A stretch of 56,622 bases of DNA from an uncultured Candidatus Saccharibacteria bacterium (GCA_964629265.1 CAZVQM010000001.1:1-56622); one strand, 5' to 3'; positions 15,476-56,622 are shown, counted from the first letter of the stretch. The notes: a model not told the origin generated them from the letters alone. Translations and numbers: made by a program.

Positions 15476-15488
15476 AATCAAAACTTGT

Positions 15489-17700: not shown

Positions 17701-17710
17701 AAGAGGGACT

Positions 17711-18544: not shown

Positions 18545-18582
18545 ACGTTTTCCTCTCATGGAGACCCTCTTTTTATAGAACG

Positions 18583-18611
18583 ATTATAGTCCGGAAAAGG
18601 TATTCGGGCAA
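18583..18611 (-). promoter_or_regulatory. Putative sigma70-type promoter for the SDR-ALDH-aldolase unit
   Basis: On the minus strand: TTGCCC (18611-18606), a 17-nt spacer, then TATAAT (18588-18583). Confidence 0.45.
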
Positions 18612-18696
18612 GCATTTCTCATATAATAGCATTGACATCTATTACATTTCGTGTCACAAATAGGCCCAGTACCTACTACTCTCTGGAGGTGGCATC

Positions 18697-19987: not shown

Positions 19988-20557
19988 CTATCGAAGCGCA
20001 AGCGTAGCAACATCTCTTCCCTGTGCTTCCAGGATGAAATTTGCGAGATCACGAATTGCGCCGTCCCCACCGCGGCGCTTTGCGACAAAATGCACGCGTT
20101 TTTTTATTATGTCCTCGGCCTGTAGAGGCGCGGCGGCGAGCTCGACTTCCTTGAGAATCTCGTAGTCAGTCATGTCATCACCCATTGCCGCACAATCACC
20201 AAACGTAAGTCCATGTGAAGCAAGCCATGTCTTTGCTGTTTCTACTTTTGCTTTACGCTCTACCCCGGAAAAAACCGCTATCGGCTCCCACGTTCCGGAC
20301 GCGACCGAAGACAAACTATTCCATTTCTTGACCAAATTTTCCAGAAATGAAGCATTCACACCAGACTCACCGGTAATACAGCAAACCACAATTCCGATTC
20401 CCCGAAGAAGAGATATCCCCTGCCCGTCCGCGTGGCTGCGGATTTTTGCAAGCGGCCCTTCGGGCCCCTCAATCACGTGGCCGGTAAAAATAACGCCGTC
20501 GCTATCAAGAACCAAGGCCTTTATCTTTTTTGCACGCTCTTGCAGTGATGCATTCAT
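19988..20557 (-). CDS. HAD-IIIA phosphatase, KdsC / ulosonate-phosphate phosphatase family
   Basis: Motifs 'IKALVLDSDGVIFTG' (DxD nucleophile), 'ITGES', 'AAMGDDMTDYEIL' and 'RRGGDGAIRDLANFILEAQG', colinear with KdsC. Confidence 0.8.
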   Translation of the reverse strand: MNASLQERAKKIKALVLDSDGVIFTGHVIEGPEGPLAKIRSHADGQGISLLRGIGIVVCCITGESGVNASFLENLVKKWNSLSSVASGTWEPIAVFSGVERKAKVETAKTWLASHGLTFGDCAAMGDDMTDYEILKEVELAAAPLQAEDIIKKRVHFVAKRRGGDGAIRDLANFILEAQGRDVATLALR

Positions 20558-20578
20558 AAAAAAGTTTCGATATGTAAA

Positions 20579-21304
20579 CTATGCATGCGCAATGACTCCT
20601 TTTTCAAGAAGCGCCTCCGCGATCGCAAAATCCAATTCCGAATCAATATCAAGGGCGTAGAGATAAGGAATAATATGGTATCCGCTTCGTTCTCCGTAGA
20701 GAAGTTTTCTCTCCTTGAGAACCGAGGTTCGCGTCACAATGATATTTCCTCGGAAATATGCTTTCTCATGTTTCTGGCGGGCATTGGGGTAGGTATTGAG
20801 CGTATAGTGGTCATGGAATGGCGCAAGAGAATCCGCATCGGTAATCCGAAGCGCTTTACCGGGATGTTGACGCGCCTCTGCCACACCCATTACGGAATCA
20901 AGCTGGGGATTCTTCAGAAGAACCTCGATAGATGCATCGATATCCTCCGTACGTTGGAAGGGAACCGTGGGAATAAGGCGAACGACGATATTGGGAATAT
21001 AGCGCTCATTCGCTTCAAGCCAATTCACTGCATGAATAATATATTCAAAATCCGGAGATGTGTCACCAGAAATCTCCGCCGGACGGAGAAATGGCGCTTC
21101 GGCTCCGGAACGATTTGCAACCTCTGCATATTCTTTTGAATCAGTCGAAACAATAATCCGATTGATGTATTTCGATTCCCGCGCAGCACCAATAATCCAA
21201 CTCATGAGCGGTTTTCCGCCGAGCGGACGAATATTTTTATGAGGGATTCCTTTCGAGCCGGATCGCGCTCCGATAATGGCTAAAATTCTATTGCTTCCTG
21301 GCAT
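20579..21304 (-). CDS. Acylneuraminate (CMP-ulosonic acid) cytidylyltransferase family, copy 1
   Basis: Motif 'ILAIIGARSGSKGIPHKNIRPLGGKPLMSWII', the canonical NeuA/CMP-NeuAc synthetase N-terminus. Confidence 0.85.
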   Translation of the reverse strand: MPGSNRILAIIGARSGSKGIPHKNIRPLGGKPLMSWIIGAARESKYINRIIVSTDSKEYAEVANRSGAEAPFLRPAEISGDTSPDFEYIIHAVNWLEANERYIPNIVVRLIPTVPFQRTEDIDASIEVLLKNPQLDSVMGVAEARQHPGKALRITDADSLAPFHDHYTLNTYPNARQKHEKAYFRGNIIVTRTSVLKERKLLYGERSGYHIIPYLYALDIDSELDFAIAEALLEKGVIAHA

Positions 21305-21313
21305 ACAGATTTT

Positions 21314-22051
21314 TTATACAATAAAACCCCCCGGATCTTCTTTCAATTTCTCCATCAGTTTCTCCGCGATGAAAAAATCAAGAGGCGTATCGATATCAAT
21401 CGCATACGGCTTCGGAATCACATGGTACCGGACACGCTTCCCCGCCATTGATTTCTCTTCGACGAGCGTGCGCCATCTGAGCGCAATCACGTCAACGTGC
21501 TGAAAAGCTTTTGGAAACGACTGGCGCGGCATATTATGAGCATCCTTAAATCCCGTATGCTCTTCAGATAAAAACGGCTCGAGGTAACCATCGGTAGAGG
21601 CGCGCCATAATTTATAGGGGTGCTTTGAAACAGAGGCAATGGTGCGCGAAGAATCTGCTGACTGGTCATTTTTCAAAAGCTCTACGCAAGCGTCAATATG
21701 TTCCGGTCGGCACAAAGGCGTCGTCGGTGCAAGACGCAATATCACGTCCGCCTGCCATCCTTCGCGATCGCGAAGCGTGGTTGCCGCGTGATACAAGTAA
21801 TCAAAATCGGGCGTATGATCCTTTGCGAGTTCTTTCGGCCGTAAAAATGGAACTTCGATTCCCTGCTCGATTGCAAGATCCGCATACCGGGGTGAATCAG
21901 TAGACATGATAAGGCGCGTAACGGAATGGGACTGCTTTGCCGCATCCGCAATCCACGCAAATAAAGGCTTCCCGGCAAGCGGCCGGATATTCTTGTCTGG
22001 TACCCCTCGGGAACCAGAGCGCGCGCCAATGACTCCCAATACTTTCATCAA
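21314..22051 (-). CDS. Acylneuraminate (CMP-ulosonic acid) cytidylyltransferase family, copy 2
   Basis: Motif 'VLGVIGARSGSRGVPDKNIRPLAGKPLFAWIA'. It is a tandem paralogue of the preceding gene. Confidence 0.85.
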   Translation of the reverse strand: MMKVLGVIGARSGSRGVPDKNIRPLAGKPLFAWIADAAKQSHSVTRLIMSTDSPRYADLAIEQGIEVPFLRPKELAKDHTPDFDYLYHAATTLRDREGWQADVILRLAPTTPLCRPEHIDACVELLKNDQSADSSRTIASVSKHPYKLWRASTDGYLEPFLSEEHTGFKDAHNMPRQSFPKAFQHVDVIALRWRTLVEEKSMAGKRVRYHVIPKPYAIDIDTPLDFFIAEKLMEKLKEDPGGFIV

Positions 22052-31595: not shown

Positions 31596-31611
31596 AAAAC
31601 CCAGGGGTTTT
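31596..31611. terminator. Small hairpin between convergent genes (weak terminator)
   Basis: AAAACC-CAGG-GGTTTT. It is short and AU-rich and overlaps the stop codon of the 902-aa gene. Confidence 0.25.
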
Positions 31612-34318
31612 ACAATACGCGAAATTCCGGAATACTTACAATAAACTTGCCGCCCTTTAATCTCCATTCTTTCTCCTTTTCGAGAAACGCATTGGTAAAT
31701 CCCCACGGAAGAATATAAAAATAGTCGGCTTTTGCGCGCGCCATTGCCTCAGATACAATAGGAATATTCGTCCCCACCGTAAACTTCCCAATCTTTTCCG
31801 GATGCTTTTCTGCAATCCCGGCGAGCAATGAAGAATCGATCTTGGACCACTGGAGAATCGTATTCCCCTTCGTGCTTGCGCCGTACCCATAAATAATTTT
31901 TCCGCGAGCGATCTCACTCCGCATAAACGCAATGGTATCATCCCGATTTTTTTCAATCGCGTTTCGAAAACGAATAAATTCTTCTTCCCCGACGTCTTCC
32001 GGATACTGAATACTTCCCGACGCAAGATGGCGCGAAAAAAGCCGATAACTCCCGCCGTTGATGTTGTTTTCCGTGACACGAAAAATCTCAAGTCCGTTTC
32101 TCTCAAAAAGATGCCTCAAAGCGCGATACGAATAATATTCGAGATGCTCATGGCAGATATTTGAGACGTCGTTATGCTCGAGCATCGGCCGCAACGTCAT
32201 CATCTGCGCAATAAAGACGCCATCGGGAGCAAGATGCCTCTTCACATTTTGCATAAAGCGATTCGGATCTTCACTGTCGTAAAACATGGAAATCGCCGTA
32301 ATGATTTTTGCCTTCCTGTTTTCTGGAAGGATATGGACATCTTCCCACGCCACGCCGTATATGACATCGGCGTATCGCTTCAATTCAGGAATCAAATTTT
32401 GCGCCGGTTCCACGCCGACCCTGAGAGAGGACGATGGGACAAACGAAAGAAGTGTCCCGTCATTTGCGCCAATATCCAAAAAGAGGTCTCCAGATGCCGG
32501 CTTTGCAATAGCAAGAGAAAGCGAAGCGATCTCTCTCAAATCATCAATAATCATAGGATTCAACGCAGACCGATACCAGTAATGATCCGTATAGAGAACG
32601 CGGAAATCAGCCGTGTGCTTCAACTGAACAAGATCGCACCCGCCGCAGTGAACCAGCGTAAGAGGTGAGGATGCTGTCTTGTGAGACGGATCCCCAACAA
32701 ACGCGTTTATGTGGAGTTCCCCAAGCGATACAACCTCACTCAACTCGCGGGAGCCGCATACGCGGCACTTTGTAATAACCCCTTCCTTCATACATATTCG
32801 TGCGTTATGCGATGCAAATTCTTCAATCTCTCGCGAGAGGATCTCGCCAGCGGGAACCGTAAAGCCGCGAGGCCTGATGAAACGCCGAACGTAGCGCTTC
32901 CTATTTCCCTCTGTTCGATCGACTCCGCTCGCCAACAGACACACGGCATCTACAAATTCAGCCGGAGAACGAACAAATTCAAGAACGCGGCCCTCCATGA
33001 GCTGCTGAAAATGAATCGCATGCTCCTGCCTGTTTTGTTTTGCAAGAATGGAAATCACCGGCCTTCCGATGATTATAGCACCGATGACTGCACTTGTATT
33101 GGCGCCTTCAACCACGGCGCAGGAATGAAACAAACAATCATAAAACAGCTGAAGATTCTTTATAGCGACCGGCAGTATATTGAACGCTGGAATAACTCGT
33201 ACATCACGCAAACCAGATACCCGCTCGTACATTGAAAAATGCGTTGGATGCGGCCTGATAATAACCTGTGTCTTCCGAATGTGTGGATTGGAAGCATTGT
33301 CGAGCGCGTACCGTATCCACTCAATAAGTCCTGCCTCGTCAATCGTTGCAGCAACAGAACTCCCCAAATAGAGGAGGATCGGATCTTCCGCGCGAAGTTT
33401 GTACATCGCACAAAAATTTTTGCGCTCGAGAGAAGGACTTCGCGGCACAAACCACTCATCGAAATACGGCGCTCCCGTAACGCGAATATCCTCTCGCGCC
33501 ATTCCCTGATACATAACAGCTTCATCGCGCTGCGTTTCGTTCCACACGAACAATCGGTCGGGAATTATATGGAAAACTCCTTTATTGGTGAGATTATCCC
33601 ACGAAAGCACTGGGATAGCATTTGGAATTTTCATATCTCGCGCCGCCTTCAAATACTCAAGTTCAGCAGAAGAATACCGCATATTGGTGGGAGAAGCGAG
33701 TACCACATCCGGATGTATCTCCTGTATATGCAGAATCGCGTTTGGGTGAGCAGATGCGAAACGCTCAAAGAGTCTAAGACATGCGCCTACTACGCCGGTA
33801 CGAAGCAAAAAACGGACCGGCAGCCACAAAACGCATTTCTGCAAAAAAGGATGAAGATACCGTCGCCACCGTTCTGCATAGAATTGTTCCTGCTCGGGCA
33901 TGAGGAGGTAACGCCGATAGCTCAAAATCTCCCGCACATGAAAAAGGAAGGTTCCTCGCCGCGATACATCGCGGGCCCAGTCGAATAGTATCCCAGATGA
34001 GGCGGATTCTCCTTTCCGCAGATCCTCAATAGAATATTTCTTTGAAAGACCACGATCGAAAAGAACATGCACGCGATTGCCGCGATCTGCCATCGCCCGA
34101 ATCGCGCTTTGAAAGACACTAAACTCGCCACACGAGCGGATGACAAAAAGAATGGTAAACCCCGCACTAAATTTCGACTGGTTCTTGTGCCGCCCTGATG
34201 GAGCCGGCGGGAGAACGTTGGATTCCAAAACAATATGTTCACCAGTATCCGATGGAACCGACTGCGGCGGTCGAAATTGTAGTGGCGGGGTAAACTGTCG
34301 AGAAGAAAGTGATGTCAT
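31610..34318 (-). CDS. Fusion protein: uncharacterised 'SWDN-motif' two-Rossmann-like domain (N) + TylCIII-type NDP-hexose C-methyltransferase (C)
   Basis: The N-terminal half carries 'IPVLSWDNLTNKGVF', 'IRVTGAPYFDEW' and 'VIIRPHPTHF'. The C-terminal half has a Zn-ribbon 'CRVCGSRELSEV...HCGGCDLVQL', the SAM motif 'FLDIGANDGTLL', and 'ICHEHLEYYS', 'NGGSYRLF', 'YGYGASTKGNTILQ'. The ATG at 34318 forms an ATGA overlap with the upstream stop. Confidence 0.8.
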   Translation of the reverse strand: MTSLSSRQFTPPLQFRPPQSVPSDTGEHIVLESNVLPPAPSGRHKNQSKFSAGFTILFVIRSCGEFSVFQSAIRAMADRGNRVHVLFDRGLSKKYSIEDLRKGESASSGILFDWARDVSRRGTFLFHVREILSYRRYLLMPEQEQFYAERWRRYLHPFLQKCVLWLPVRFLLRTGVVGACLRLFERFASAHPNAILHIQEIHPDVVLASPTNMRYSSAELEYLKAARDMKIPNAIPVLSWDNLTNKGVFHIIPDRLFVWNETQRDEAVMYQGMAREDIRVTGAPYFDEWFVPRSPSLERKNFCAMYKLRAEDPILLYLGSSVAATIDEAGLIEWIRYALDNASNPHIRKTQVIIRPHPTHFSMYERVSGLRDVRVIPAFNILPVAIKNLQLFYDCLFHSCAVVEGANTSAVIGAIIIGRPVISILAKQNRQEHAIHFQQLMEGRVLEFVRSPAEFVDAVCLLASGVDRTEGNRKRYVRRFIRPRGFTVPAGEILSREIEEFASHNARICMKEGVITKCRVCGSRELSEVVSLGELHINAFVGDPSHKTASSPLTLVHCGGCDLVQLKHTADFRVLYTDHYWYRSALNPMIIDDLREIASLSLAIAKPASGDLFLDIGANDGTLLSFVPSSSLRVGVEPAQNLIPELKRYADVIYGVAWEDVHILPENRKAKIITAISMFYDSEDPNRFMQNVKRHLAPDGVFIAQMMTLRPMLEHNDVSNICHEHLEYYSYRALRHLFERNGLEIFRVTENNINGGSYRLFSRHLASGSIQYPEDVGEEEFIRFRNAIEKNRDDTIAFMRSEIARGKIIYGYGASTKGNTILQWSKIDSSLLAGIAEKHPEKIGKFTVGTNIPIVSEAMARAKADYFYILPWGFTNAFLEKEKEWRLKGGKFIVSIPEFRVL

Positions 34319-35091
34319 GGAAACACAAGGAGGCATTGGCCCGTCATGAGGTTAAACCGCCGTATTCGTTTGCCTGCGGGAGAACCGCAGTATTCTTCGA
34401 CTGTCTTTTCTACGCCGGGCGAGGTTTCATAAAAACCATAGTCGTCGACAATGATAATCCCCCCTGAGGCCATCCGTTCTCCGAAAAAAGAGAGAGCGAA
34501 TTTCGTCGGCTCCTCAATATCCATATCAAGATGTACGAGATGAAATTTCGTATGGAAAAATCGCGGCGCGATATCTTGAATTCTCCCTTTTAGTACTTCA
34601 ACGAACGGAAAAGAAGAAAGGTATGCGCGAACCGATTCAAAACTCGTATCGGAAAAAAGGCCCGGAACGTGGCGTTTCCCTTCTCGAAGGTGTGGCAAAT
34701 CCCGTGCGTCGTGCCCGGTAAACGTATCGACACTATACATGGCCGCGCCATCGGAAAAATAATGGCGGCAGAGCGCTGCAAGAAAATGGCTCGTTCCCCC
34801 TTTGTGTACTCCCGCCTCGAGGATAAAAATCTTTTCGCCGCCATGGCGAATCCGCGTGATATTTTCGACCGCCTGATACAAATGATAAAGCCGATCATAA
34901 AAATGTCCCGTGGTCTTCGCTTCGACAACCTCGCGCGCGCTTCGATAGAAGACGCTGTGTGCCCGAATATCGCGAAGTTTCTTGGCCGAACGTCCGTATA
35001 CGGTCGGCACATAGTGATACCCCTCTCGGGCGCGAAACACTACGTACCCAAAGCGGAGGATTATTCTCTGTACGAATTCATTTAATTTCAT
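34315..35091 (-). CDS. TylF/MycF-family (Methyltransf_24-like) SAM O-methyltransferase
   Basis: Motifs 'ILEAGVHKGGTSHFLA', 'SVDTFTGH', 'VHLDMDIEEPT' and 'GGIIIVDDYGF'. The ATG at 35091 is preferred over the track start at 35184. Confidence 0.8.
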   Translation of the reverse strand: MKLNEFVQRIILRFGYVVFRAREGYHYVPTVYGRSAKKLRDIRAHSVFYRSAREVVEAKTTGHFYDRLYHLYQAVENITRIRHGGEKIFILEAGVHKGGTSHFLAALCRHYFSDGAAMYSVDTFTGHDARDLPHLREGKRHVPGLFSDTSFESVRAYLSSFPFVEVLKGRIQDIAPRFFHTKFHLVHLDMDIEEPTKFALSFFGERMASGGIIIVDDYGFYETSPGVEKTVEEYCGSPAGKRIRRFNLMTGQCLLVFP

Positions 35092-36496
35092 GGTAGGGAA
35101 TCTTACGGAGGTCTGAATGTGACGCGACAGCATGTACGATCCGGAAAATGCGCTCGCCTGCTTTCCCGTCAAGCGGCCCAACATGCTTTTTTACGATACG
35201 CGCCCTCCCCTCGCGATCACGGGACGGATTTTCAAGATACGAACGTACAACCTCGATGAGCTCTTTTTCATTGGAAGCGCGCCGCATGCCTCCTGTAGCT
35301 TCCAGTTCCTGATAATGGACCGTATTATCAAGCGCCGCGGACAAACGCTGGCTCCATCGAATCCTCGAGTCGGGAGTATACCCATTGAATCCTATAAGGA
35401 CAATCGGCCTATCAAAAATCGATGCTTCGAGCGCAACAGTGGATCCCATATTAAGCGTAACGTCGCTCAAGCGCACCAAATTCATGAGAAGCCGAAGATC
35501 CGCATCGGTAAAATCCCATCCCTTCCCGAACGCAAGAACCGGACATTGCTTTGCCTCCTCGCGAAGCGCGCGTACATGATAGGGACTTGGATGCGGACGA
35601 ATGACCGCCTGCGAATTTGGGAGCTCTCCTCGCCCAATCGCTTTCACAAGCATCACGACGTGTTCGGCTGTTTCCGGAATGTTAAAGAGTCCCGCCATGA
35701 GCCCGCCTCCAAAATACGTGATCCAGCGCTTCGAAGAATCAATCCCAAACATCTTTCCGAACTCCTCCTTTGACATCCGCCACGCGGGGTCAACATAATG
35801 ATCCCATTGCGGAAATCCGACCACACGAATGTGTTCTCGTGGGTAGCTATTGAAACGCACCGCTTCTTCAACCATGGAATCATTCTGCACCAAGAGAACA
35901 TCGGGATGCACCCGAAGAAACCCTTTTGAGGTGAAATTATCCCAGCTTCGCATCATGCCGATCGAAGGAATCCCGTGGCGATGAGCGTATTTCACCATGA
36001 GAAAATCACTCTCCGTGAGAAGCCCGGCCGCAAACACGGCGTCAGGTTGATATTTCTCGAAGTATAGATGCCATCCCGCATCGTCACGAAAAATATAATA
36101 TTCGATATTCCGCATAATCCAGCGCCAAAACGTGAAATGCCCCAACACCCAGAATCCCTGCTTAACCAAAAAATTCACAAGCGAGCCGCCATTCAGATAG
36201 CTGAACCAGATTCGAGAAGAAATCGTACGGGTTGGTACGCACCCAAAACAAGCGATCCGATACATCTGTTTTACCCATCGATCTCCACCAATGTCGGGCG
36301 GAATTGACTCAATAATGCAATGCTCATTCCCGAATTTCTCTTGATACTTCTTTGCGTTTTCGTCCGGAACAAAGAGAACGGCGGTTACATCTTGGCGCGC
36401 CTTCAAAATCGAGTAAAAATCACCGTAGAGGATATTACGGATCTCCTGGCCCGCCGCAAGCGTAAGAAAAATTACCGTATTTCTTTTTTTTTCCAT
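35078..36496 (-). CDS. Uncharacterised 'SWDN-motif' two-Rossmann-like protein (paralogue B)
   Basis: Motifs 'GMMRSWDNFTSKGFL', 'IRVVGFPQWDHY' and 'AVIRPHPSPY', colinear with 41458..42825 and the N-terminal half of 31610..34318. An A9 run lies in codons 2-5. Confidence 0.7.
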   Translation of the reverse strand: MEKKRNTVIFLTLAAGQEIRNILYGDFYSILKARQDVTAVLFVPDENAKKYQEKFGNEHCIIESIPPDIGGDRWVKQMYRIACFGCVPTRTISSRIWFSYLNGGSLVNFLVKQGFWVLGHFTFWRWIMRNIEYYIFRDDAGWHLYFEKYQPDAVFAAGLLTESDFLMVKYAHRHGIPSIGMMRSWDNFTSKGFLRVHPDVLLVQNDSMVEEAVRFNSYPREHIRVVGFPQWDHYVDPAWRMSKEEFGKMFGIDSSKRWITYFGGGLMAGLFNIPETAEHVVMLVKAIGRGELPNSQAVIRPHPSPYHVRALREEAKQCPVLAFGKGWDFTDADLRLLMNLVRLSDVTLNMGSTVALEASIFDRPIVLIGFNGYTPDSRIRWSQRLSAALDNTVHYQELEATGGMRRASNEKELIEVVRSYLENPSRDREGRARIVKKHVGPLDGKAGERIFRIVHAVASHSDLRKIPYHEIK

Positions 36497-36497
36497 A

Positions 36498-38264
36498 TCA
36501 CTTGTGCATAGAATGCATGCGAGAAAAAACCGACTTCGGATCAGCCAGAAGGTCGCGCGGCCGCCCCTCCTCTTTCACCGATCCTTCGTCTAGCACGAAA
36601 ATTCGATCTGCGCCCATTACCGTTGAAAGACGGTGCGCAATAATAATGATCGTGACTTTCCCCCGCAAATTCTCAATGGCGTGCTGTATATGCCTTTCGG
36701 ACTCAATATCCAAAGCACTCGTCGCCTCGTCAAGTATAAGGACGGAGGGGAGTTCTGCAAGAGCCCGTGCGAGGACAATCCGTTGGCGCTGCCCGCCAGA
36801 AAGCATCGTCCCCCGTTCTCCCACCACCGTCCGGATTCCTTGGGGAAGGGACATCACAAAGTCGTGTATGTAGGCACGCTGCAATGCAAAACGTATGTCT
36901 TCGTCTGATACATTACCCCGATAAAATCTTACGTTGTGCTCAATAGTATCGTTTAATAAAAAAATATCCTGCGATACGTAGCTAATGCGTTTTCTCCACT
37001 CATGGAGATCAAATTCCTCTGCCGGTCTTCCATCAAGAAGGATTCCGCCCCCTTGAGGCGAAAAAAACCTCATCAGGAGATCCGCAATCGTTGTCTTCCC
37101 GGCGCCTGAAACTCCTACAATCCCTACCATTTCTCCCTTTTTTACGGAAAACGACAAATGAGAGAAGAGCTCCGTCTTACCCGTATGAGAGAACGTAACG
37201 CCGCGAAACATTACCTCATGCTCAAAGCGAAACGGAAGTCCCTGCCGGAATTCCTCTTGAGAACCTGACAACATACGCTTAAACTGCTCCACGAATACGA
37301 CATGGGGTAACGATTCATTGATATCATGCAGAGCGCCTTGGATAAGTTCAATCTGCAAAAATATCTGCTGTACGAGATAGATGATTGCGACAAACGACTC
37401 AAAGTGAAATTCCGTCGTATAGTATGAGAAAAGAAAAATGCTTGATATAAGGACAACACTCGCCGGTTCAATCGCTTGCTTATTGAGCGACCGAATGATA
37501 TTCCCTTTCAACTCAAGCGAGCGCCATTGATTAAACTGCTCTTCGCCGCGCAGAAGTACCTCATCTTCCACCGCCAATGCCTTAATGGTCTTAAGCCCTC
37601 CCAAATGCTCAATGAGATATTGGAAAAGATTCTTACTTTCACGCGCAAACGCCTCTCGGAGCACCTTTGTCTTCCGGAGCAAAGGTCCGAGTATAGCGAG
37701 AAGAATTCCTCCTACCATGACAGTAATTATTGTGATCGGGTAAGAGATGGTGAACGCGACAGACAAAAATACCGCCACGCTCACAAATGCAAGGGGCAAA
37801 TATGCGAGAGAACCGAGAAGTTGCGAACTCCGATCTACGTCTTGGGTGAGCGCCGTCTGGATGTAGCCTGCCTTCTGAAAAAGAAGTACCGGCCATCGCG
37901 CGCGAAGTACTTTTCGTAAGATATCACCCATCTCCCGCGTACGGTAATGATACATAACGCTGAGCCGGACATAACTAAACAAAAAAAGAAAGCCCGCCTT
38001 TAAAACAAAGAAGATGATAATAAAAACTGCAAGCGACCGAATATCATACGGAAACGGAAGATACTGAAAAACCGCCGCCACAAAGCGGGTAATCATGTTT
38101 TCCCCACCGCCCTCTCCCCCGATGACAAACGAGAGGAGCGGAATCACCATACCTACGCCGACGCTCGCTGCAATACTCCCCGCGAGCCCAACGCATCCCA
38201 TAAGAACAAGTTGAGGGAGGTAGGGGCGATATGTCCGAATCAAAAGACGAAACGTCTCCTTCAT
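36498..38264 (-). CDS. ABC exporter, fused permease-ATPase (MsbA/PglK/Wzk-like)
   Basis: N-terminal six-TM-type domain, Walker A 'GVSGAGKTT', signature 'LSGGQRQR' and Walker B 'ILILDEATSALD'. Confidence 0.9.
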   Translation of the reverse strand: MKETFRLLIRTYRPYLPQLVLMGCVGLAGSIAASVGVGMVIPLLSFVIGGEGGGENMITRFVAAVFQYLPFPYDIRSLAVFIIIFFVLKAGFLFLFSYVRLSVMYHYRTREMGDILRKVLRARWPVLLFQKAGYIQTALTQDVDRSSQLLGSLAYLPLAFVSVAVFLSVAFTISYPITIITVMVGGILLAILGPLLRKTKVLREAFARESKNLFQYLIEHLGGLKTIKALAVEDEVLLRGEEQFNQWRSLELKGNIIRSLNKQAIEPASVVLISSIFLFSYYTTEFHFESFVAIIYLVQQIFLQIELIQGALHDINESLPHVVFVEQFKRMLSGSQEEFRQGLPFRFEHEVMFRGVTFSHTGKTELFSHLSFSVKKGEMVGIVGVSGAGKTTIADLLMRFFSPQGGGILLDGRPAEEFDLHEWRKRISYVSQDIFLLNDTIEHNVRFYRGNVSDEDIRFALQRAYIHDFVMSLPQGIRTVVGERGTMLSGGQRQRIVLARALAELPSVLILDEATSALDIESERHIQHAIENLRGKVTIIIIAHRLSTVMGADRIFVLDEGSVKEEGRPRDLLADPKSVFSRMHSMHK

Positions 38265-38292
38265 ATACCTTCTTCAATCATACCTTTCTCTT

Positions 38293-39615
38293 CTACAAGG
38301 ATGCATGGAATTGTTTCTGAACGGAAAACGAAGGGAAATCAATGCGACTGAGAACATCGACTATCTTTTTTGCGGCAGTACCGTCTCCGAAAAGATTGGT
38401 TGAAGGATACGGGCCATATTCCAATTGCCACTCAATCACAGAACGAATGTCGTCGGCGTGAGCTTCTGCATCAATCACATTCACGCCCCGCTCGCGTCCA
38501 TCCTGGCGATTCCCCACGAGGACAACGGGAGTGCCGAAATATCCTCCCTCCCGCAGAAAACTGGAAGAATTTCCAACCGCAACCGCGGCATGTTTAAGAA
38601 TTCGACAAAAATCTTTTGGAGAAAATCCGCGAAAAAACACCGCCGTTGTCTTTGCGGCCGAATGCTGACGTTCACGATATTCCCGAATTGCCGAAGAAAT
38701 ACCGTCTTGACCTCCATCAATATTCGGAGCAATAAAAATCTTCGGCAGATCGAATACATCAACTGCTTTCAAAATACTCTCCATATTCTCATAGCTTGAC
38801 CGATATTCCGTGGTTACCGGATGTTGGGAAACAATAATAAATGGTTTGCGGAGATCAACGCCGCGGAGGTTATCCGCTTTCCATACCCCGGGGCCATGCA
38901 TATCACGAAATGGCTCGTTAAGCGACAGATCAATTCCCATCAAAAAATCAATAATAGGGGAACCGGCGAGGTGGACAGAGCGGGGGTCCTCACCCATTGC
39001 AAGAATACGCTCTTTTGATTTTTGCGTCACCGGAAAATGAATATGAGCCAATTTCGTAATCGCGTGGCGGACACTGTTATCGATTGTACCGGAAACGTCT
39101 CCGCCCTCGAGATGCGCAATCGGAATATTTAAAAACGCGGCTGCCATCGCGACCGGAAGTATCTCAAACCGATCGCCGTGAAGAAGCAAAACGTCTGGCC
39201 GAAGACTTTCAAAAATGTCCGGAATACCCAAGAGTCCGAAGGCGGCTGATTTGACCATTGTAGTAAGATTTCCACCTTCAAGAAACAAAGGAAGCCGCGC
39301 GCTGATCGGGAAACCATCAGCTGTAAGTACCCGCATAAGATACTCCATCTGATGAATTTCGTGATGAGGCTTCAGAAGCGCTGATGTGCGCGCACGAATA
39401 TACCATGGCAGAGAACGAAAAAACGACACCGGCTCTCCGTGGCGAAGATACCAGAGGAGGTGGTCGAAAAAGAGCGGGGTTCCAACAATAACCTGAAGCT
39501 CAAAATTTGGATGATTTTGAACAGCCCCCATAACGGGTTTGAGCCGTCCATAATCGGCGCGGCTTGTTGTGACAACACAAATTTTTTTCTTTTTCGTTAC
39601 TTCACGTGATTCCAT
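38293..39615 (-). CDS. UDP-N-acetylglucosamine 2-epimerase (hydrolysing), NeuC/LegG type, with an N-domain insertion
   Basis: Motifs 'KICVVTTSRADYGRLKPV', 'LLLHGDRFEIL', 'HLEGGDVSGTIDNSVRHAITKLAHIHF' and 'NSSSFLREG'. It is ~440 aa versus ~370-390 for typical NeuC. Confidence 0.85.
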   Translation of the reverse strand: MESREVTKKKKICVVTTSRADYGRLKPVMGAVQNHPNFELQVIVGTPLFFDHLLWYLRHGEPVSFFRSLPWYIRARTSALLKPHHEIHQMEYLMRVLTADGFPISARLPLFLEGGNLTTMVKSAAFGLLGIPDIFESLRPDVLLLHGDRFEILPVAMAAAFLNIPIAHLEGGDVSGTIDNSVRHAITKLAHIHFPVTQKSKERILAMGEDPRSVHLAGSPIIDFLMGIDLSLNEPFRDMHGPGVWKADNLRGVDLRKPFIIVSQHPVTTEYRSSYENMESILKAVDVFDLPKIFIAPNIDGGQDGISSAIREYRERQHSAAKTTAVFFRGFSPKDFCRILKHAAVAVGNSSSFLREGGYFGTPVVLVGNRQDGRERGVNVIDAEAHADDIRSVIEWQLEYGPYPSTNLFGDGTAAKKIVDVLSRIDFPSFSVQKQFHASL

Positions 39616-40640
39616 CGAAGCTGTGTGTCCTTCGGTATATCTCGCCGAGCCCGCCGCCCGAGTATACGTTTAAATCCCTCTGCACGGATTTGACCAGTTC
39701 CCGGCCGTTTCACCCAAAGATTTTCCATGGTAAATTTTTCTCCTTTCTTTACCGGCGCAATAGTTACTACTGACGCAAACGCAAAATCAATCGTCGGCTG
39801 TTCTTCTTTGAGGGGGCCTTTGTGCTCTCCGCGCGACTCCCAGATGGCGCGCGATCCCGTAATAAGCATTTTTAATTCTTGCGGATCCATGGAAACCAGA
39901 ATGTCCTCCCCTTTCCATGTACGGTCGGACGTAAAATGCCGTTCAAGAACCGATGCGCCAAGTGCAACCGCGCCCAAGGCCGCCCACGGGCCTTTTGAGT
40001 GATTCGAAAGCCCTACAACGGTATCAGGGAACGCTTTGCGTAACTTTGCAACCGCTTGAAGATACACGCGGTTCCAGGGAGTTGGATACATATTCGTACA
40101 GTGAAGAAGTACGAACGGAACCTTATGCTTGCGTAAAATGGCAACTGTTTTTTTGATTGACGGAATATCGTTCATGCCGGTTGAAACAATCATCGGCTTT
40201 CCGAACCGAGCAACATGCTCCACCAAGGGATAATTATTGCATTCTCCTGATCCGATTTTAAATGCCTTCACGCCAATTTTTTGAAGTCGATTCGCAGCGG
40301 CGCGCGAAAACGGCGTTGAAAGAAAAATCATTCCGAATCTTTCCGTGTAGCGCTTCAGTTCGCGCTCTTGCGTTTCCGAAAGCGCCGAGCGCTCCATAAC
40401 CTCCCAAATAGAAACCTTAGAATTTGCCGGAATTGTTTTTCGCGCTTCCGCTTCAAGCATTTCATCCTCAAGGACATGCCCCTGAAATTTCACACATTCG
40501 GCCCCAGCCCGCGCCGCATCGCGGATCATCCGCTTTGCTTTTGCAAGATTCCCATTGTGATTAATGCCGATTTCCGCGATTACAAACGGCGGATAATCAA
40601 GACCGATTTTTCTTTCCGAAATAGTAATAGAGGGATTCAT
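39597..40640 (-). CDS. NeuB-family N-acylneuraminate/legionaminate-type synthase with SAF domain
   Basis: Motif 'FVIAEIGINHNGNLAKAKRMIRDAARAGAECVKFQ' and a C-terminal SAF-like 'VKKGEKFTMENLWVKRPGTG'. Confidence 0.9.
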   Translation of the reverse strand: MNPSITISERKIGLDYPPFVIAEIGINHNGNLAKAKRMIRDAARAGAECVKFQGHVLEDEMLEAEARKTIPANSKVSIWEVMERSALSETQERELKRYTERFGMIFLSTPFSRAAANRLQKIGVKAFKIGSGECNNYPLVEHVARFGKPMIVSTGMNDIPSIKKTVAILRKHKVPFVLLHCTNMYPTPWNRVYLQAVAKLRKAFPDTVVGLSNHSKGPWAALGAVALGASVLERHFTSDRTWKGEDILVSMDPQELKMLITGSRAIWESRGEHKGPLKEEQPTIDFAFASVVTIAPVKKGEKFTMENLWVKRPGTGQIRAEGFKRILGRRARRDIPKDTQLRWNHVK

Positions 40641-40646
40641 ATAATG

Positions 40647-41381
40647 CTAGGGTTTCTCTTCTTCTAGTATTTTTTTAAATTTTTCTTCTGCGGCTTCCCA
40701 ATCTGACGGCTCGTCGATATCAAAGGCAAATTTCTTATCTACTACGCACCCGCGCGAATCATCGCCGTAGATATTCGGCTCCGGAGAAAACAAGAGCGAC
40801 GACTGAAACGCATAGACGGAACTGTTCCGATAATATGTTTTGGGAAGCGATTGCCTGCGGGGAACAAAATTTTTTAACGGACCCCCGGCAAAGATGGAGA
40901 GGCGATCGTGTGCAGCCATCGTAACCTGCCACATCGGATTCAATACGCCGGGTACCTCTGCAACGCTGATAACCGAGTCCGCTCCGGTCGCCCTCAACTT
41001 CTCAACGATCTCCCGGACGTGATAGGGCCGTTTTGCGGCAGACGTCGGTTCGAAAAGCACGACATATTCCGGCACATAGTTTTCGCGCTCTTTAAGCCAT
41101 GAAAGCGCATGCACCAAAACCGGCAGAGTCGGCGTATTATCCTCGGCAAGTTCCGCGGGACGCATAAACGGAACCTCTGCTCCGTACATACGCGCGACCG
41201 CCGCAATTTCTTCCTCATCTGTACTCACAATAACGCGATCAACGATTCCGCTTTTCTTGAGCGTCTCAATAGCCCATGCAAGAAGTGGCTTTCCGCAAAA
41301 CGGTTTGATGTTCTTGCGCGGGATCGCTTTTGAACCGCCGCGCGCGGGAATAATACCGAGAATATCTTTCTTAACTTTCAT
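40647..41381 (-). CDS. Acylneuraminate (CMP-ulosonic acid) cytidylyltransferase family, copy 3
   Basis: Motif 'ILGIIPARGGSKAIPRKNIKPFCGKPLLAWAI'. The ATG at 41381 (MKVKKD) is preferred. The 61-aa N-terminal extension in the track overlaps the upstream gene. Confidence 0.85.
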   Translation of the reverse strand: MKVKKDILGIIPARGGSKAIPRKNIKPFCGKPLLAWAIETLKKSGIVDRVIVSTDEEEIAAVARMYGAEVPFMRPAELAEDNTPTLPVLVHALSWLKERENYVPEYVVLFEPTSAAKRPYHVREIVEKLRATGADSVISVAEVPGVLNPMWQVTMAAHDRLSIFAGGPLKNFVPRRQSLPKTYYRNSSVYAFQSSLLFSPEPNIYGDDSRGCVVDKKFAFDIDEPSDWEAAEEKFKKILEEEKP

Positions 41382-41457
41382 GCAACAAATATAACGTATA
41401 CGGCTATTGAAAAGTTTTTGAGTTGACTGATTAAAAAATTGCGCTAATGCGCCACAT

Positions 41458-42825
41458 CTAGTTGCGAGAAAACATGAGAGCGGCGTGTGCAACGCGATCC
41501 GCTGAATGACCATCGAGCTTCCAGATAAATTCCTGCCGAATTCGTTCTCGTCCTTCCGCATCAAGATTCGGATTATCTAAATAATTATTTATATATGTAA
41601 TGAGCGATTCGCGCGTATACGCAATCGCAAATCCTTTCGTGCGCGAAAGCGCAATGTAGTGGGAATAATCATGATAGTAACGCTTTACGGAGCGCCAATG
41701 TGGCTCCTGCGACTTTCCGTCAAACGCAACGCATACGATCGGCTTGTCGAACGCAGCGGCGTCAACGGTCATAGTGGAAGCAGTTGTCACAAGCACATCG
41801 CAATGTGCAAGGGAATTCGCGAGATGAACAACCTGTTCTTGCTCCATTTCCCAACTTGACCGGTCCTTCCCGCTATATGACGAAATACCACTATCAAAAA
41901 CCACATTCCCGAGGCGCTTTACAGAATTCTCATCAAAACGAAAAGCGGGATGGGGCCGAAATACAAGAACAACCTCTTTTGCGTCTTCAATCATCCCCTC
42001 CCGGAGCTTCCGCGCGATTATTTCGAGTACTTCAATTTCATGCGGTGCATGAAAATCCCCAATTCCCGCAAAAAGAATCATTTTCTTTTTTGGATCAATA
42101 CCGAGTTTCCGAAAAAATTCCTCCCTCGGCACTATTATATCCTTCACATACCAATCAAAATGAGGAATGCCGACTAGTCGGATCCGTTCCCGCGGGTACT
42201 GTTGCACATATTCCATCTTTTCTGCAATATAAGGACTCCAAACAAGGAGTACAACATGAATATATGGAACAAGACCGCCGCGAGAAGTTGGGTTGTCCCA
42301 ACTTCGCACCATACCGACAACCGGAACATTATTCTTGTGCGCTGCTATCGTTGCATCAAAATCTAATTCGATTTGGACATCCGTGGAAAAAAGCAAATCT
42401 GGCTTTTCACGAGAAAAAAGCTCTTCCATGGCACGCGAAGGCGCACGAAGCAAAAAAAGACGCCGCACAAACGCGTGGAACCATTTACTTTTTCCAAAAA
42501 GATAGATAAAAGTCCTCTTTGCGGCAAAAGCGACATACCTTCCCTCCATATGGGTCCGCTGATCCATAAGAATTGTTTCGGTCCATAAACCATTTCGAAT
42601 ACAGTATGAGAGTACGCGTTCAAAAAACGAGAGGGGCCGGCCGAGAATTCCAAAAACAGAAATTCGATCCGACCCAAATTCTGTCCGATAGAACTCTTCT
42701 TTGTCCGCATGTGTAACAAGTCCCACGTGAACATCGCTATGCTGAATAATCTTTTCAAGCACAAAAGAGCGAAGAATATTTCTCGCAATCGATCCGTCAT
42801 TTACGGTAATAAAGATTTTTTTCAT
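41458..42825 (-). CDS. Uncharacterised 'SWDN-motif' two-Rossmann-like protein (paralogue C)
   Basis: Motifs 'GMVRSWDNPTSRGGL', 'IRLVGIPHFDWY' and 'LVFRPHPAFR'. The N-terminal 'IFITVNDGSIARNILRS' parallels 'VIFLTLAAGQEIRNILYG' of paralogue B. Confidence 0.7.
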   Translation of the reverse strand: MKKIFITVNDGSIARNILRSFVLEKIIQHSDVHVGLVTHADKEEFYRTEFGSDRISVFGILGRPLSFFERVLSYCIRNGLWTETILMDQRTHMEGRYVAFAAKRTFIYLFGKSKWFHAFVRRLFLLRAPSRAMEELFSREKPDLLFSTDVQIELDFDATIAAHKNNVPVVGMVRSWDNPTSRGGLVPYIHVVLLVWSPYIAEKMEYVQQYPRERIRLVGIPHFDWYVKDIIVPREEFFRKLGIDPKKKMILFAGIGDFHAPHEIEVLEIIARKLREGMIEDAKEVVLVFRPHPAFRFDENSVKRLGNVVFDSGISSYSGKDRSSWEMEQEQVVHLANSLAHCDVLVTTASTMTVDAAAFDKPIVCVAFDGKSQEPHWRSVKRYYHDYSHYIALSRTKGFAIAYTRESLITYINNYLDNPNLDAEGRERIRQEFIWKLDGHSADRVAHAALMFSRN

Positions 42826-54124: not shown

Positions 54125-56622
54125 CTACTTCGTGAAGTTCTGCTGGCTCATTTCCGTTGTCGGAAGGCCTGGCACTTGGTAGCCGTTCAACCAGTCGTTC
54201 GTCGTTGTTGCCGACGTAGTCGTGGTGTTTGGCGACCAGACGAAATCGTTTTGCGCAGAATACCCTACGACATCTGCTTGCTCGCGGTTTACCAAGTTCG
54301 TGTTGTTTGCGAACGTGGAATCGCCGAGGAGCGCGACCGCAATCGAGTCACCTATCGTGACGCTTGCGAGTGAACCTTTAAGTTCAAAGTATCGCGATCC
54401 GCCTGCAGGGATATTCAATGCTTCGACTGTCGTAGAAGCAGATGATACGGTTGGGGTCGTGTTTGAGACCGGGTTGAAGTAGAAGACTATTTCATCCGTT
54501 CCCATGGCGCCGCTCCCCGAGACATTACCCCATACGTCCTCGCTCACTTCATCAACATTTCGCGAATGTACCGGGTTTTGCGCATACGCATTCGTTGAGA
54601 AGCCGGAGTCCGAGTACGCGAAGAGCTTGAAGATTGTCGTTGTCGCAACAGTCGTTGAACTTACCCGGAACGTCATCTTCGCAATACCGAGATCGTCTGC
54701 CGCATCCGCCGTCACCTTGAATCGGTAGAGTGTCATCTCGCCGTTTGCAAGGGTATTTGACGGAACAGACAGGCGTTCAAACGTCGGGTAGGTTTGCACA
54801 AGGCGTACTCCTACGCCAGCTGTATCAGCACCTGCAGTCGGGTTGAGTTCTCCGCCCGACGAAAGGCCAACACCTTTTGTGGTTGTTACTGCCTCGCCGT
54901 CGTAGTTTACGGTAACAAGATGACCTCGCGTTGCCGCCTCATTCACGCCAAGGAGTCCAAGATCCGCCTTAATCGTAAGGAGCTTCTCAGTGTCCTTCGC
55001 AACCGTGAAGTCGGCCAAGCTCAAGGTCGATGTTGCGCGCGTACCAGTTCCCTGGAAGACCGCTTCACCAACCTTTGTTGCGCCGTCCCAGAGGGTCAAC
55101 TTCTTGATATCTGAAGATGACGCCGTGGATGATGCAAGCGTAAGCGCAATCCGATCAAGTCGAATTGCTTCATCAGTTGCTTTAATCTTCAATACCACCA
55201 ACAAGACATCGGTCTTATTTGCAATACCATAACGCTCTGCGGTCGGGCTTGACGCGTCAAGCGTGATCGTAAGCGTTCCTCCGGTTTTTATGGTCATCGT
55301 GGGGCCGGTGTTTAACGTAACGGATTCCGTTACTGTAACGCCGGTACTTTTGCCAACAACTGTTGTATCGCTGTTTGTAGACGTAAGACCAACTCGGAAG
55401 GTCTCACTTGCTGCGGGCAAGTTGGAGATATTGCACTTCACATCAACCTCCTTCACTGTTCCCTTCGGAATAATGATCTCGGTATCCATGTTGAAGGTAA
55501 GCAAGTCCTCCGTGTTCGCCGTTGCCTCGTCAGGCGTTACAACGTTCCCGCCCGAGTTGAGTGCCGTTGCGCCGTCAAACATCTGGCAGGTGTTAAGATC
55601 AGTTGCTGTTGAACCGCTCGCTGGCGTAAGTCCCATTTTCTGGGTCGTGATCCGGAGGTCTTCACCGGAATCAGACGCGTCGTACTGAACTTTTGCGAAC
55701 AAGAATCCATTGACGCCGCGGACAACATTCTGCGAAGCCGGAGTCGGCGCAATTGCCACGCGAAGCGCTGCGCGCTTTACCGTCATTGTGTTTGCCGTTG
55801 TTGACGACGTCGGAGTCGCTGAAATCGTAAGGCCCGTTACCTCGCCTTTTGCCGTAATGTCTCCGTCAGGATCAATTTGCGCCTGGACAGTATCAGCATC
55901 TTCGAAGTCAGTTGTCAGTTTGCCTTTGATGACGTACGTGTTCGCGCCAACCGGAACAGTCCATGTGTCGGTGAAGGTAACTGACTCATCAGAGCCAACA
56001 TCCTTGGGCCCGGCAACAACTGCGCCAGCATCGGTGAAGACCGATACGTTGTCAATCTGCGTTCCATCCTCGCCCGCTGAAAGGCCGAATGTAACCTTGA
56101 ATGACGTGACCTGCACTGGCTCGCCTTTTGCTTCAAGCATGAAGGAACCGAGCGAGGTATTCGATACGTCTACAGGAACGTTTCCTGCGGCAATAGTATT
56201 GGACTTCTCAACGCGGAGAGTTCCCTTTGCAATGGTATGTGCATATCCATCGTAGTAGGGCTCTGTTGACGTAAATCCTTCACCCTGCGTAGAGGTGTTT
56301 GCCGAGGTGCCGTTTGCCGGCGTGAGGTAGTAGCCGTAGGTCTTTCCTTTCACTACAACATCGGTTCTCCGCTGGATATCAAAGTCAATGGTTCGGTCAG
56401 AACCACCTTCCACGTCGAGTTTGATTGCGGTTTCTATGTTGCCGCCTTTATCAACTTCAACTGATTGGCCTAATCGCGCGACATAATATCGCCCGTCAGA
56501 GCTTGCTTCTGCCGGATACTCGGTGCCGTTCACGACAACACGGACGTTTTTGACGTCACCCGTGCCGGCGGAACCCGCCTGGTACCATCGGACTTGTTCA
56601 AGCATAACCGGCTCTGCGGATC
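54125..56622 (-). CDS. Large Thr/Ser/Val/Gly-rich modular cell-surface protein (5'-partial; runs off the right edge)
   Basis: The frame is open from the window edge. The first in-window Met (56605) is not followed by a signal peptide. There are at least four ~110-130-aa beta-strand-rich modules sharing the pattern 'x-F/L-x-V/I-x-A-x-x-E/D-x-V/I-x-V/L ... V-x-L/F-x-D-G-A/T'. Two terminators follow the stop. Confidence 0.8.
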   Translation of the reverse strand, partial: SAEPVMLEQVRWYQAGSAGTGDVKNVRVVVNGTEYPAEASSDGRYYVARLGQSVEVDKGGNIETAIKLDVEGGSDRTIDFDIQRRTDVVVKGKTYGYYLTPANGTSANTSTQGEGFTSTEPYYDGYAHTIAKGTLRVEKSNTIAAGNVPVDVSNTSLGSFMLEAKGEPVQVTSFKVTFGLSAGEDGTQIDNVSVFTDAGAVVAGPKDVGSDESVTFTDTWTVPVGANTYVIKGKLTTDFEDADTVQAQIDPDGDITAKGEVTGLTISATPTSSTTANTMTVKRAALRVAIAPTPASQNVVRGVNGFLFAKVQYDASDSGEDLRITTQKMGLTPASGSTATDLNTCQMFDGATALNSGGNVVTPDEATANTEDLLTFNMDTEIIIPKGTVKEVDVKCNISNLPAASETFRVGLTSTNSDTTVVGKSTGVTVTESVTLNTGPTMTIKTGGTLTITLDASSPTAERYGIANKTDVLLVVLKIKATDEAIRLDRIALTLASSTASSSDIKKLTLWDGATKVGEAVFQGTGTRATSTLSLADFTVAKDTEKLLTIKADLGLLGVNEAATRGHLVTVNYDGEAVTTTKGVGLSSGGELNPTAGADTAGVGVRLVQTYPTFERLSVPSNTLANGEMTLYRFKVTADAADDLGIAKMTFRVSSTTVATTTIFKLFAYSDSGFSTNAYAQNPVHSRNVDEVSEDVWGNVSGSGAMGTDEIVFYFNPVSNTTPTVSSASTTVEALNIPAGGSRYFELKGSLASVTIGDSIAVALLGDSTFANNTNLVNREQADVVGYSAQNDFVWSPNTTTTSATTTNDWLNGYQVPGLPTTEMSQQNFTK

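Follow-up and report, generated by a model that had tools for sequence, protein, structure and literature searches.

The established families of nonulosonic acid (NulO) transferases are few, comprising Maf, GT118 KpsS1 and the classical sialyltransferases, to which the genetically implicated proteins of Tannerella can be added. To our knowledge, the bacterial enzymes that transfer pseudaminic acid (Pse), legionaminic acid (Leg) and numerous sialic-acid-like sugars are for the most part unknown, and new ones are wanted in glyco-engineering. The present analysis concerns three paralogous open reading frames (ORFs), termed A, B and C, on a 56,622 bp stretch of DNA from an uncultured Candidatus Saccharibacteria bacterium (GCA_964629265.1 CAZVQM010000001.1:1-56622), the whole of which is called the window below. 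A, B and the N-terminal half of C are read as glycosyltransferases (GTs) using cytidine monophosphate (CMP)-nonulosonates on a TagF scaffold, a reading to which a probability of roughly 0.6 can be given. Because NulO transferases are scarce, the family to which they belong is of moderate to good interest.

Among the described systems, the BFO_1060 family is close to these proteins. The Tannerella forsythia BFO_1060 homologues Tanf_01245 and TFUB4_00887 carry a TagB/GT-B domain with an HP motif, and knocking them out removes the Pse or Leg derivative at the end of the S-layer O-glycan (Tomek et al. 2017, PMC5420450); NulO transfer by the BFO_1060 family has already been proposed from these knock-outs (PMC5420450). 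The present family resembles it in the TagB/GT-B domain, the HP motif, a location beside CMP-NulO biosynthesis genes and a CMP-nonulosonate as the proposed donor. The Tannerella proteins, however, belong to Bacteroidota and to general O-glycosylation, and the knock-out evidence is theirs; the present family is concentrated in the Candidate Phyla Radiation (CPR)/Patescibacteria and has further branches among the Verrucomicrobiota, Elusimicrobiota, Acidobacteriota and in Rhizobium.

The TagF-like transferases (TagB/TarB, TagF/TarF and TarL/TarK; structures 3L7I-3L7K and 8VA1) share with the present family the GT-B fold and a homologous C-domain. Cryo-electron microscopy of TarL identified H300 of the W299-H300 pair (H444 in TagF) as the catalytic base, while H433 contacts the alpha-phosphate and protonates CMP or helps it to leave (PMC10901376). 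The (K/R)xHP signature around the latter type of histidine is a CMP motif common to the sialyltransferases of GT29, GT38, GT42, GT52 and GT80 and to the retaining Kdo (3-deoxy-D-manno-octulosonate) transferases of GT99 and GT107 (PMC12887879). The GT-B sialyltransferases (GT38, GT52 and GT80) and the retaining enzymes GT99 WbbB, GT107 KpsC, GT118 KpsS1 and GT140 KrkA have this motif in common with the present family; they use CMP-ulosonic donors, employ a carboxylate as base or nucleophile and need no metal-binding DxD, a likeness that is in part proposed for the family. The D/E-D/E-G motif of sialyltransferases and the QxxxD motif of Kdo transferases are not present as such in the family.

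Three paralogous genes and their family

The initial annotation had described A, B and the N-terminal half of C as paralogues colinear over about 450 amino acids (aa). Their places (Table 1) and their paralogy were confirmed by BLASTP, which revealed similarities far above chance: 28% identity over the full length between A and B (E 6e-47), 23% over 328 residues between A and C (E 1e-20), and 24% over approximately 160 residues between B and C (E 7e-10). Colinearity held for A and B, whereas in C it was firm only from about residue 200, the first ~140 residues aligning weakly. The three-way alignment contained the invariant blocks SWDN, I-R-[VL]-x-G-x-P-x-x-D and RPHP; a further block that had been listed as common to all three, RNIL, occurred in A and B only. 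C retains SWDN, GxPxxD and RPHP, but its C-domain has neither the acid of ‘ST..D’ nor an ‘FDG’ block. A fourth paralogue could not be detected in the window by tblastn.

B was 100% identical to ‘hypothetical protein A2131_02190’ of Candidatus Sungbacteria GWC2_49_10 (CPR/Patescibacteria), and A and C are likewise publicly annotated as hypothetical or uncharacterized. In UniRef, B is named ‘UDP-N-acetylglucosamine 2-epimerase domain-containing protein’ and a 419-aa member of its 90% cluster ‘Small-conductance mechanosensitive channel’; both names look like annotation artefacts.

An exhaustive profile search of 1.84 billion representatives recovered 14,629 proteins at E ≤ 1e-3, of which 7,307 passed E ≤ 1e-10 and 3,450 passed E ≤ 1e-30; the family size is put here at no fewer than 3,450 clusters (50% identity). 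Many family genes are carried by Saccharibacteria, and among the cultivable carriers are Rhizobium sp. WL3 (WP_147885260.1), a Verrucomicrobium and Sediminibacterium. Most members are annotated as ‘hypothetical’ or mislabelled ‘CDP-glycerol glycerophosphotransferase family protein’, and a literature search found no direct characterization of the family. Some members are fusions, namely tandem two-domain proteins (897-944 aa) and fusions to GT4 or methyltransferase domains (P0121-P0125, P0158 and P0185). Fusion partners were limited to further family copies, GT4 and methyltransferases, and none was a NeuA or NeuB. The family-methyltransferase fusion P0185 parallels C, in which the attached C-methyltransferase module would tie sugar tailoring to transfer. 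At another locus (L123), the same type of C-methyltransferase occurs as a separate gene near a family member.

Relationship to the TagF-like superfamily

The initial annotation could not assign the three proteins to a named family, although such an assignment is possible at superfamily level. B scored 45.7 bits against Pfam PF04464 Glyphos_transf, above the gathering score of 22.1, A reached 20.7 bits, just below it, and C gave no match; the same Pfam family is precomputed for most of 157 homologues. Only model positions ~134-367 were matched, and positions 1-133, which hold the WHG of TagF-likes, were never aligned. When a family profile built from a 34-sequence alignment of members was searched against the PDB, TarL (8VA1) was found at E 3e-4, with ‘vRlHP’ of the family aligned on ‘fKMHP’ of TarL. 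Comparison by hhalign with 11 canonical TagF-like genes, which had been taken from annotated plasmids with a TarL fragment as probe, gave a probability of 98.8% (E 1.4e-16). The confident region extended from about residue 190 of B to its C-terminus (455) and paired GxPxxD with GyPRxD, KKxILYa with kkvilYaPT and RxHP with KxH(P/Y/F), as well as ST..D..FDkP with SS..[DE]..l.rP, FD with yD, and DGxsgeR with dGxAsxR. Judged by these profile alignments, homology to TagF-likes extends over the C-domain and the final part of the N-domain, the common elements being GxPxxD, (K/R)xH(P), S-[ST]...[DE]...P, FD and the C-terminal DG.s..R helix. A phmmer search of B against the PDB gave no match at E ≤ 10, and a profile of the N-domain only (B 138-232) gave chance matches only.

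The AlphaFold2 model of B (pLDDT 95.1, pTM 0.92) displayed the two Rossmann-like domains of a GT-B fold with a helical insert of about 75 residues in the N-domain. The GT-B or TagF-like fold guessed in the initial annotation is in agreement with this model, with its Foldseek neighbors and with the hhalign result. The insert sets the family apart from the TagF-likes, as does its lack of a match to the N-terminal third of the Pfam model. The Foldseek neighbors were generic GT-B proteins with a TM score of ~0.55, including UDP-N-acetylglucosamine (UDP-GlcNAc) 2-epimerases (E ~1e-13), MshA and WaaG; TagF and TarL were not among the top 50. Neighbors of this kind do not discriminate the donor type.

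The top Foldseek PDB matches and the UniRef name of B could suggest that the proteins are UDP-GlcNAc 2-epimerase-like, or otherwise GT-B-fold proteins that are not transferases. This is hardly credible and was rejected, as no Pfam Epimerase_2 match was obtained even at E ≤ 1, and hhalign against the NeuC of the window gave a probability of 20% over 86 C-terminal columns compared to 98.8% for the TagF-likes. Moreover, a TM score of this size is generic for GT-B proteins, MshA and WaaG being matched at it as well, and the locus is already supplied with a bona fide NeuC.

Among curated models, NCBIfam NF046086 ‘BFO_1060 family glycosyltransferase’ scored best and was matched by all 34 members (best E 2e-20). 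B matched it essentially over its full length (residues 136-447 on model positions 42-358 of 365), while the best-scoring stretch of A and C was the N-domain segment with SWDN and GxPxxD. The scores were 55.1 bits for B, 50.7 for A and 31.9 for C. Because all scores lie far below the cut-off of 200 bits, the proteins are classified by these models as a separate family, sister to NF046086, and not as members of it. The TarB/TarF/TarL models of NCBIfam were matched by only 2-3 of the 34 members. TIGR04396 ‘surface carbohydrate biosynthesis protein’ was matched weakly by 11 of 34 (best E 2.3e-8, far below its 125-bit cut-off), the match in C covering the SWDN region; a literature search found no study of TIGR04396. 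With respect to GT38, GT42, GT52, GT80, GT99, GT107 and GT118, the family gave no Pfam match, no PDB profile match at E ≤ 10 except TarL, and none in the top 50 of Foldseek. On profile evidence, A, B and the N-terminal half of C form a distinct, large and unnamed branch of the TagF-like (Pfam Glyphos_transf/COG1887) superfamily.

Nucleotide site and candidate catalytic residues

H292 of B, the histidine of RxHP, aligned on TarL H433, for which the equivalent TagF residue is H584. In the 34-sequence alignment, R290 and P293 were invariant (34/34 each) and H292 was conserved in 31/34. Because TagF-likes share the motif, it indicates a cytidine nucleotide and not specifically a CMP-sugar. As far as conserved residues can tell, the family C-domain retains the cytidine-nucleotide site of the superfamily together with the ‘S-T...D’ helix start and ‘P...FD’. 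One of the members without the histidine, P0078, adjoins a second family gene and lies 7 kb from NeuB-NeuC-NeuA (locus L122).

The N-domain differs from that of the TagF-likes. The W-H pair was invariant in 11/11 canonical TagF-likes, whereas the family has no conserved N-domain histidine, with no column of the 34-sequence alignment holding His in more than 19 (no column reaches 60%). By this alignment, the catalytic W-H base of TagF is lost in the family, which has instead an invariant loop, S-W-D-(N/Q)-x-T-x-K. The only invariant N-domain residues (34/34) were S175, D177 and G219; W176, N178, D155 and D224 were nearly invariant (W and N in at least 90%). Even a distant Rhizobium homologue retains ‘GSWDQPTTKG’ and ‘RCHP’. 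The invariant or near-invariant acidic residues are D177, D155, D224 and D355; D177 would be the prime candidate for a carboxylate acting as catalytic acid/base, with D355 as the alternative.

In the family, strand 169-172 of the N-domain leads into the S-W-D loop, much as a strand precedes W-H in TagF-likes, and ‘WDNxTxKG’ resembles ‘WHGxPLKK’. Because alignment of profile hidden Markov models does not confirm it, a positional equivalence of S-W-D with the W-H of TagF is put forward only as one that the topology may suggest. The helical insert of the N-domain (B 60-140) has a net basic charge (+8) and is rich in aromatic residues, and its amphipathic helices have hydrophobic moments (muH) of 0.65-0.71. 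By analogy with the monotopic association of TagF-likes, it may anchor the enzyme at the membrane, and both groups are probably monotopic, membrane-associated proteins.

Genomic context of the family

The initial annotation had pointed to an association with neuA/neuB genes as a test of its proposal, and this association was observed. Family loci were located in GTDB species representatives using a degenerate DNA pattern for GMVRSWDNxT, which samples the CPR-rich sub-branch of the family only. Of the 107 stretches found, almost all from Patescibacteria, 106 encode a family gene. These stretches are 8-kb blocks not centered on the family gene; NeuB was present in 22, a CMP-type cytidylyltransferase in 24 and NeuC in 14, with at least one of them in 37/107. 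The nearest NulO gene lay within 400 bp of the family gene in 16 blocks, on the same strand in 13 of the 16. Two or three family genes were present in 48 blocks.

Wider windows of ±10 kb with precomputed Pfam assignments revealed CTP_transf_3 together with NeuB around 7/7 diverse members, which included Verrucomicrobiae, Elusimicrobia, other metagenomic lineages and one variant without the histidine. The Rhizobium plasmid homologue, named ‘hypothetical protein’ by PGAP, stands directly after neuC and an acylneuraminate cytidylyltransferase, with NeuB and a cytidylyltransferase also present. Overall, NeuB plus a CMP-type cytidylyltransferase occurred within ±10 kb at 8/8 family loci compared to 1/8 loci of canonical, WH-type TagF (Fisher p = 0.0014). 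The sole positive control was Nonomuraea gerenzanensis (L132, 7967..10612 and 15801..18669), in which a QTWHG TagF-like domain fused to GT2 lies ~5 kb from NeuB and a CMP-type cytidylyltransferase fragment; it is possibly a teichulosonic-acid-type locus. On a plasmid of Rhizobium sp. WL3 (L124, 946..6795), four consecutive ‘hypothetical proteins’ of 450-514 aa stand upstream of NeuB/KpsF/NeuC/NeuA; they have HP motifs and no similarity to the family by tblastn.

A conserved cassette of the order family gene - (GT2) - NeuA - NeuC - NeuB - ATP-binding cassette (ABC) exporter of the MsbA/PglK-like type was found at 3/7 loci (L118, L119 and the P0101 contig). In the window, the genes run B - NeuA - NeuB - NeuC - ABC - A - TylF-type methyltransferase - C. 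Within 10 kb of the NeuA-NeuC-NeuB-ABC cassette of L119, no transferase other than the family gene is encoded, so something there must transfer the NulO.

The genomic partners also bear on whether A, B and C are ordinary TagF/TagB-type phosphotransferases, moving glycerol-, ribitol- or another alditol- or sugar-phosphate from a cytidine diphosphate (CDP) donor to a glycan, an alternative that the initial annotation had also named. TagF-likes are accompanied by TagD/TarI/TarJ, while the partners of the family are NeuA/NeuB/NeuC. TagD-, IspD-, phosphocholine- or NTP-transferase-type enzymes were carried by 5/8 canonical control loci (±10 kb); probes for TagD, IspD-like, phosphocholine-cytidylyltransferase and NTP-transferase sequences, taken from annotated TagF loci, found none at 113 family loci, and no match to TagD, IspD or other CDP-polyol/CDP-donor cytidylyltransferase families was obtained among the scanned ORFs of the window. 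Phosphotransfer is suggested by the Glyphos_transf score of B, the hhalign probability to canonical TagF-likes, the conserved CMP-contacting histidine and the NCBI/JGI names of some homologues. Against these stand the missing counterpart of the W-H base, the unmatched N-terminal third of the Pfam model, the absence of CDP-donor enzymes and the far better match of members to BFO_1060 than to the TarB/TarF/TarL models. The initial annotation had regarded a confident match to TagF, with its catalytic histidine and CDP-glycerol site, as evidence against its proposal; the family match and the CMP-contacting histidine were indeed found, while the W-H base was missing and CDP-glycerol/ribitol genes were absent from the window and the 113 loci. 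Polyol- or sugar-phosphate transfer is accordingly disfavored and held to be improbable. The linkage of the family to CMP-nonulosonate genes is tight and cross-phylum, with no linkage to CDP-polyol genes.

Proposed function

The donor would be a CMP-ulosonic acid. As proposed here, each enzyme would bind a CMP-activated nonulosonic or other ulosonic acid provided by the neighboring NeuC/NeuB/NeuA-type genes. The sugar would be passed from CMP to a hydroxyl group on a glycan under extension, probably lipid-linked, on the cytoplasmic side of the membrane. The base or nucleophile would be an invariant carboxylate (D177, alternatively D355), and H292 would aid the departure of CMP, which is the leaving group in TagF-likes also. 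The TagF-likes perform phosphoryl transfer at the beta-phosphate, whereas glycosyl transfer at C2 of the ulosonic acid is proposed for the family. A, B and the N-terminal half of C are soluble but probably membrane-associated proteins. The three paralogues may serve different donors and/or acceptors, and their product would be exported or flipped by the co-encoded adjacent MsbA/PglK-like ABC exporter.

Several points weigh against this assignment. The matches of the present family to NF046086, far below the cut-off, do not extend membership of the BFO_1060 family to it. The role of BFO_1060 itself is a putative one, assigned from knock-outs. Three members (P0078, P0094 and P0113) have RFPP or RFTP and lack the CMP-contacting histidine. 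Global, local and segment-restricted hhalign runs did not support the equivalence of S-W-D and W-H; they placed S-W-D one beta-alpha unit away with low confidence, and the segments were non-significant. Furthermore, what the neighborhood indicates is a role in NulO-containing glycans, not transfer of the NulO itself. The initial annotation had cited the equal number of family genes and cytidylyltransferases in the window (3:3) in favor of its proposal, which did not hold as a rule, since L121 has four family genes with two cytidylyltransferases and L122 two with one, so that the counts are uncoupled. There is also the precedent of Bacillus subtilis SpsB, a TagB-domain protein beside a Leg pathway, which is dispensable for Leg transfer (PMC7439481).

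The last three of these points, together with best Foldseek matches that are UDP-sugar-binding GT-B proteins, favor GT-B glycosyltransferases that act on NulO-containing glycans while transferring something other than NulO, such as a hexose from a UDP-, GDP- or dTDP-sugar or another cytidine-activated group. This alternative is rated as unlikely, though clearly above the other two. The conserved R-x-H-P is a cytidine/CMP signature of CMP-donor enzymes, and wherever the donor of a significant sequence relative is known, it is a cytidine nucleotide. The L119 family gene is the sole transferase near a NulO cassette, and the window holds no other candidate NulO transferase yet encodes three CMP-activating enzymes. 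The proposal that these proteins are transferases for CMP-ulosonic acids, made in the initial annotation, gains from the phylogenomic association, and CMP-nonulosonate glycosyltransferases are preferred here as the probable reading.

A wider proposal, put forward tentatively and at slightly less than even odds, is that the S-W-D/R-x-H-P proteins constitute an unrecognized family of CAZy level with thousands of members, which would supply the missing transferases for sialic, legionaminic, pseudaminic and related acids in CPR/Patescibacteria and several other phyla. They would have arisen from the TagF scaffold by a His-to-Asp exchange with the CMP site kept, and would travel in a portable cassette with NeuA, NeuC, NeuB and the MsbA/PglK-like exporter, by which a lipid-linked surface glycan would be sialylated. 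As an extension of this proposal, tandem or fused copies may, by analogy with the TagF polymerases, build oligo- or poly-NulO chains. If true, a function could be given to at least 3,450 clusters that are now ‘hypothetical’ or mislabelled, and the use of CMP-sugars by many NeuB/NeuA-bearing CPR genomes would be explained. It would also suggest that ultra-small, probably host-attached bacteria show sialic-acid-like surfaces, and would illustrate clearly how a scaffold for phosphotransfer was turned to glycosyl transfer. The proposal is not categorically new, because NulO transfer by TagB-like GT-B proteins has been published for the neighboring family and the fold and CMP motif are known. The branch itself is distinct: very large, without a name of its own and in part wrongly annotated, it has another N-domain signature and a conserved cassette.

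Surrounding glycan locus

Approximately 50 kb of the window form a single minus-strand glycan locus, which in total encodes three CMP-type cytidylyltransferases, two NeuB and one NeuC (Table 1). The initial annotation was correct in counting three NeuA-type CMP-activating enzymes and in recognizing no classical sialyltransferase family: no match to sialyltransferase or Capsule_synth Pfam families was obtained among the scanned window ORFs of at least 180 aa.

Table 1. Coordinates of A, B and C, their motifs and associated genes (window coordinates unless a locus is named)
Feature	Position	Strand	Remarks
Paralogue A	35078..36496	minus	472 aa; ‘hypothetical protein A2131_02215’ in public records
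Paralogue B	41458..42825	minus	455 aa; member nearest to the family consensus
Paralogue C	31610..34336	minus	longest ORF; public gene calls start at 34318 (902 aa)
Family domain of C	32804..34318	minus	covers roughly residues 1-505 of 902; divergent
C-methyltransferase module fused to C	31610..32767	minus	C-terminal; zinc-binding Methyltransf_13 E 3.6e-10, Methyltransf_23 E 2.6e-14, Methyltransf_14 E 2.3e-30
SWDN motif, B (S175 W176 D177 N178)	42292..42303	minus	loop following N-domain strand 169-172
SWDN motif, A	35936..35947	minus	from alignment
SWDN motif, C	33593..33604	minus	from alignment
RPHP motif, B (R290, H292, P293)	41947..41958	minus	(K/R)xHP cytidine/CMP-binding signature
RPHP motif, A	35588..35599	minus	from alignment
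RPHP motif, C	33245..33256	minus	from alignment
G-I-P-H-F-D, B (G219, P221, D224)	42154..42171	minus	end of N-domain; aligns with invariant ‘GyPRxD’ of TagF-likes
CMP-type cytidylyltransferase (NeuA/PseF-like)	40647..41381	minus	directly downstream of B; Pfam CTP_transf_3; best NCBIfam model PseF, 175 bits, below cut-off; start codon likely
NeuB-type nonulosonate synthase	39597..40640	minus	Pfam NeuB + SAF; NCBIfam NeuB_NnaB 369 bits
NeuC-type hydrolyzing UDP-GlcNAc 2-epimerase	38293..39615	minus	Pfam Epimerase_2; NCBIfam NeuC_NnaA 327.5 bits, above equivalog cut-off 235.9
ABC exporter (MsbA/HepA/PglK-like), fused transmembrane and nucleotide-binding domains	36498..38264	minus	between NeuC and A; part of conserved cassette
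CMP-type cytidylyltransferase, tandem copy 1	20579..21304	minus	CTP_transf_3; best model PseF
CMP-type cytidylyltransferase, tandem copy 2	21314..22051	minus	CTP_transf_3; best model PseF
Second NeuB-type synthase	10990..12174	minus	profile match
Cassette copies	window 36498..42825; L118 10001..19058; L119 10001..16202		distant phyla, e.g. Verrucomicrobiae

The locus also holds at least eight GT4 genes, GT2 genes, four DegT aminotransferases, a GDP-mannose dehydratase, a PglD-like acetyltransferase, and FkbM-, TylF- and class-I methyltransferases. At 19988..22051, a haloacid dehalogenase-type hydrolase resembling KdsC/Kdn-9-phosphate phosphatase is followed by the two tandem cytidylyltransferases, which share 44% identity with one another and 37% with the NeuA adjoining B. 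The second NeuB is clustered (10990..18559) with a transketolase-like gene (12071..13993), a KDPG/KHG-type aldolase (15489..16172), an aldehyde dehydrogenase (16237..17742) and a short-chain dehydrogenase/reductase (17711..18559), an unusual combination pointing to a modified ulosonic-acid pathway.

Encoded at 2036..4351 and 9537..10979 are a 771-aa protein of the Wzy_C (O-antigen-ligase-like) type, with tetratricopeptide repeats at its C-terminus, and a PMT_2-type GT-C; these are possible ligase/oligosaccharyltransferase candidates for a CPR glycan. The ORFs 14261..15364 (367 aa), 54125..56605 (826 aa) and, on the plus strand, 18697..19770 (357 aa) gave no significant Pfam match. Nearly all genes of the window lie on the minus strand and the GC skew is negative throughout. 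The G+C content was 0.43-0.45 at 22-32 kb compared to 0.52-0.56 at the flanks of the window.

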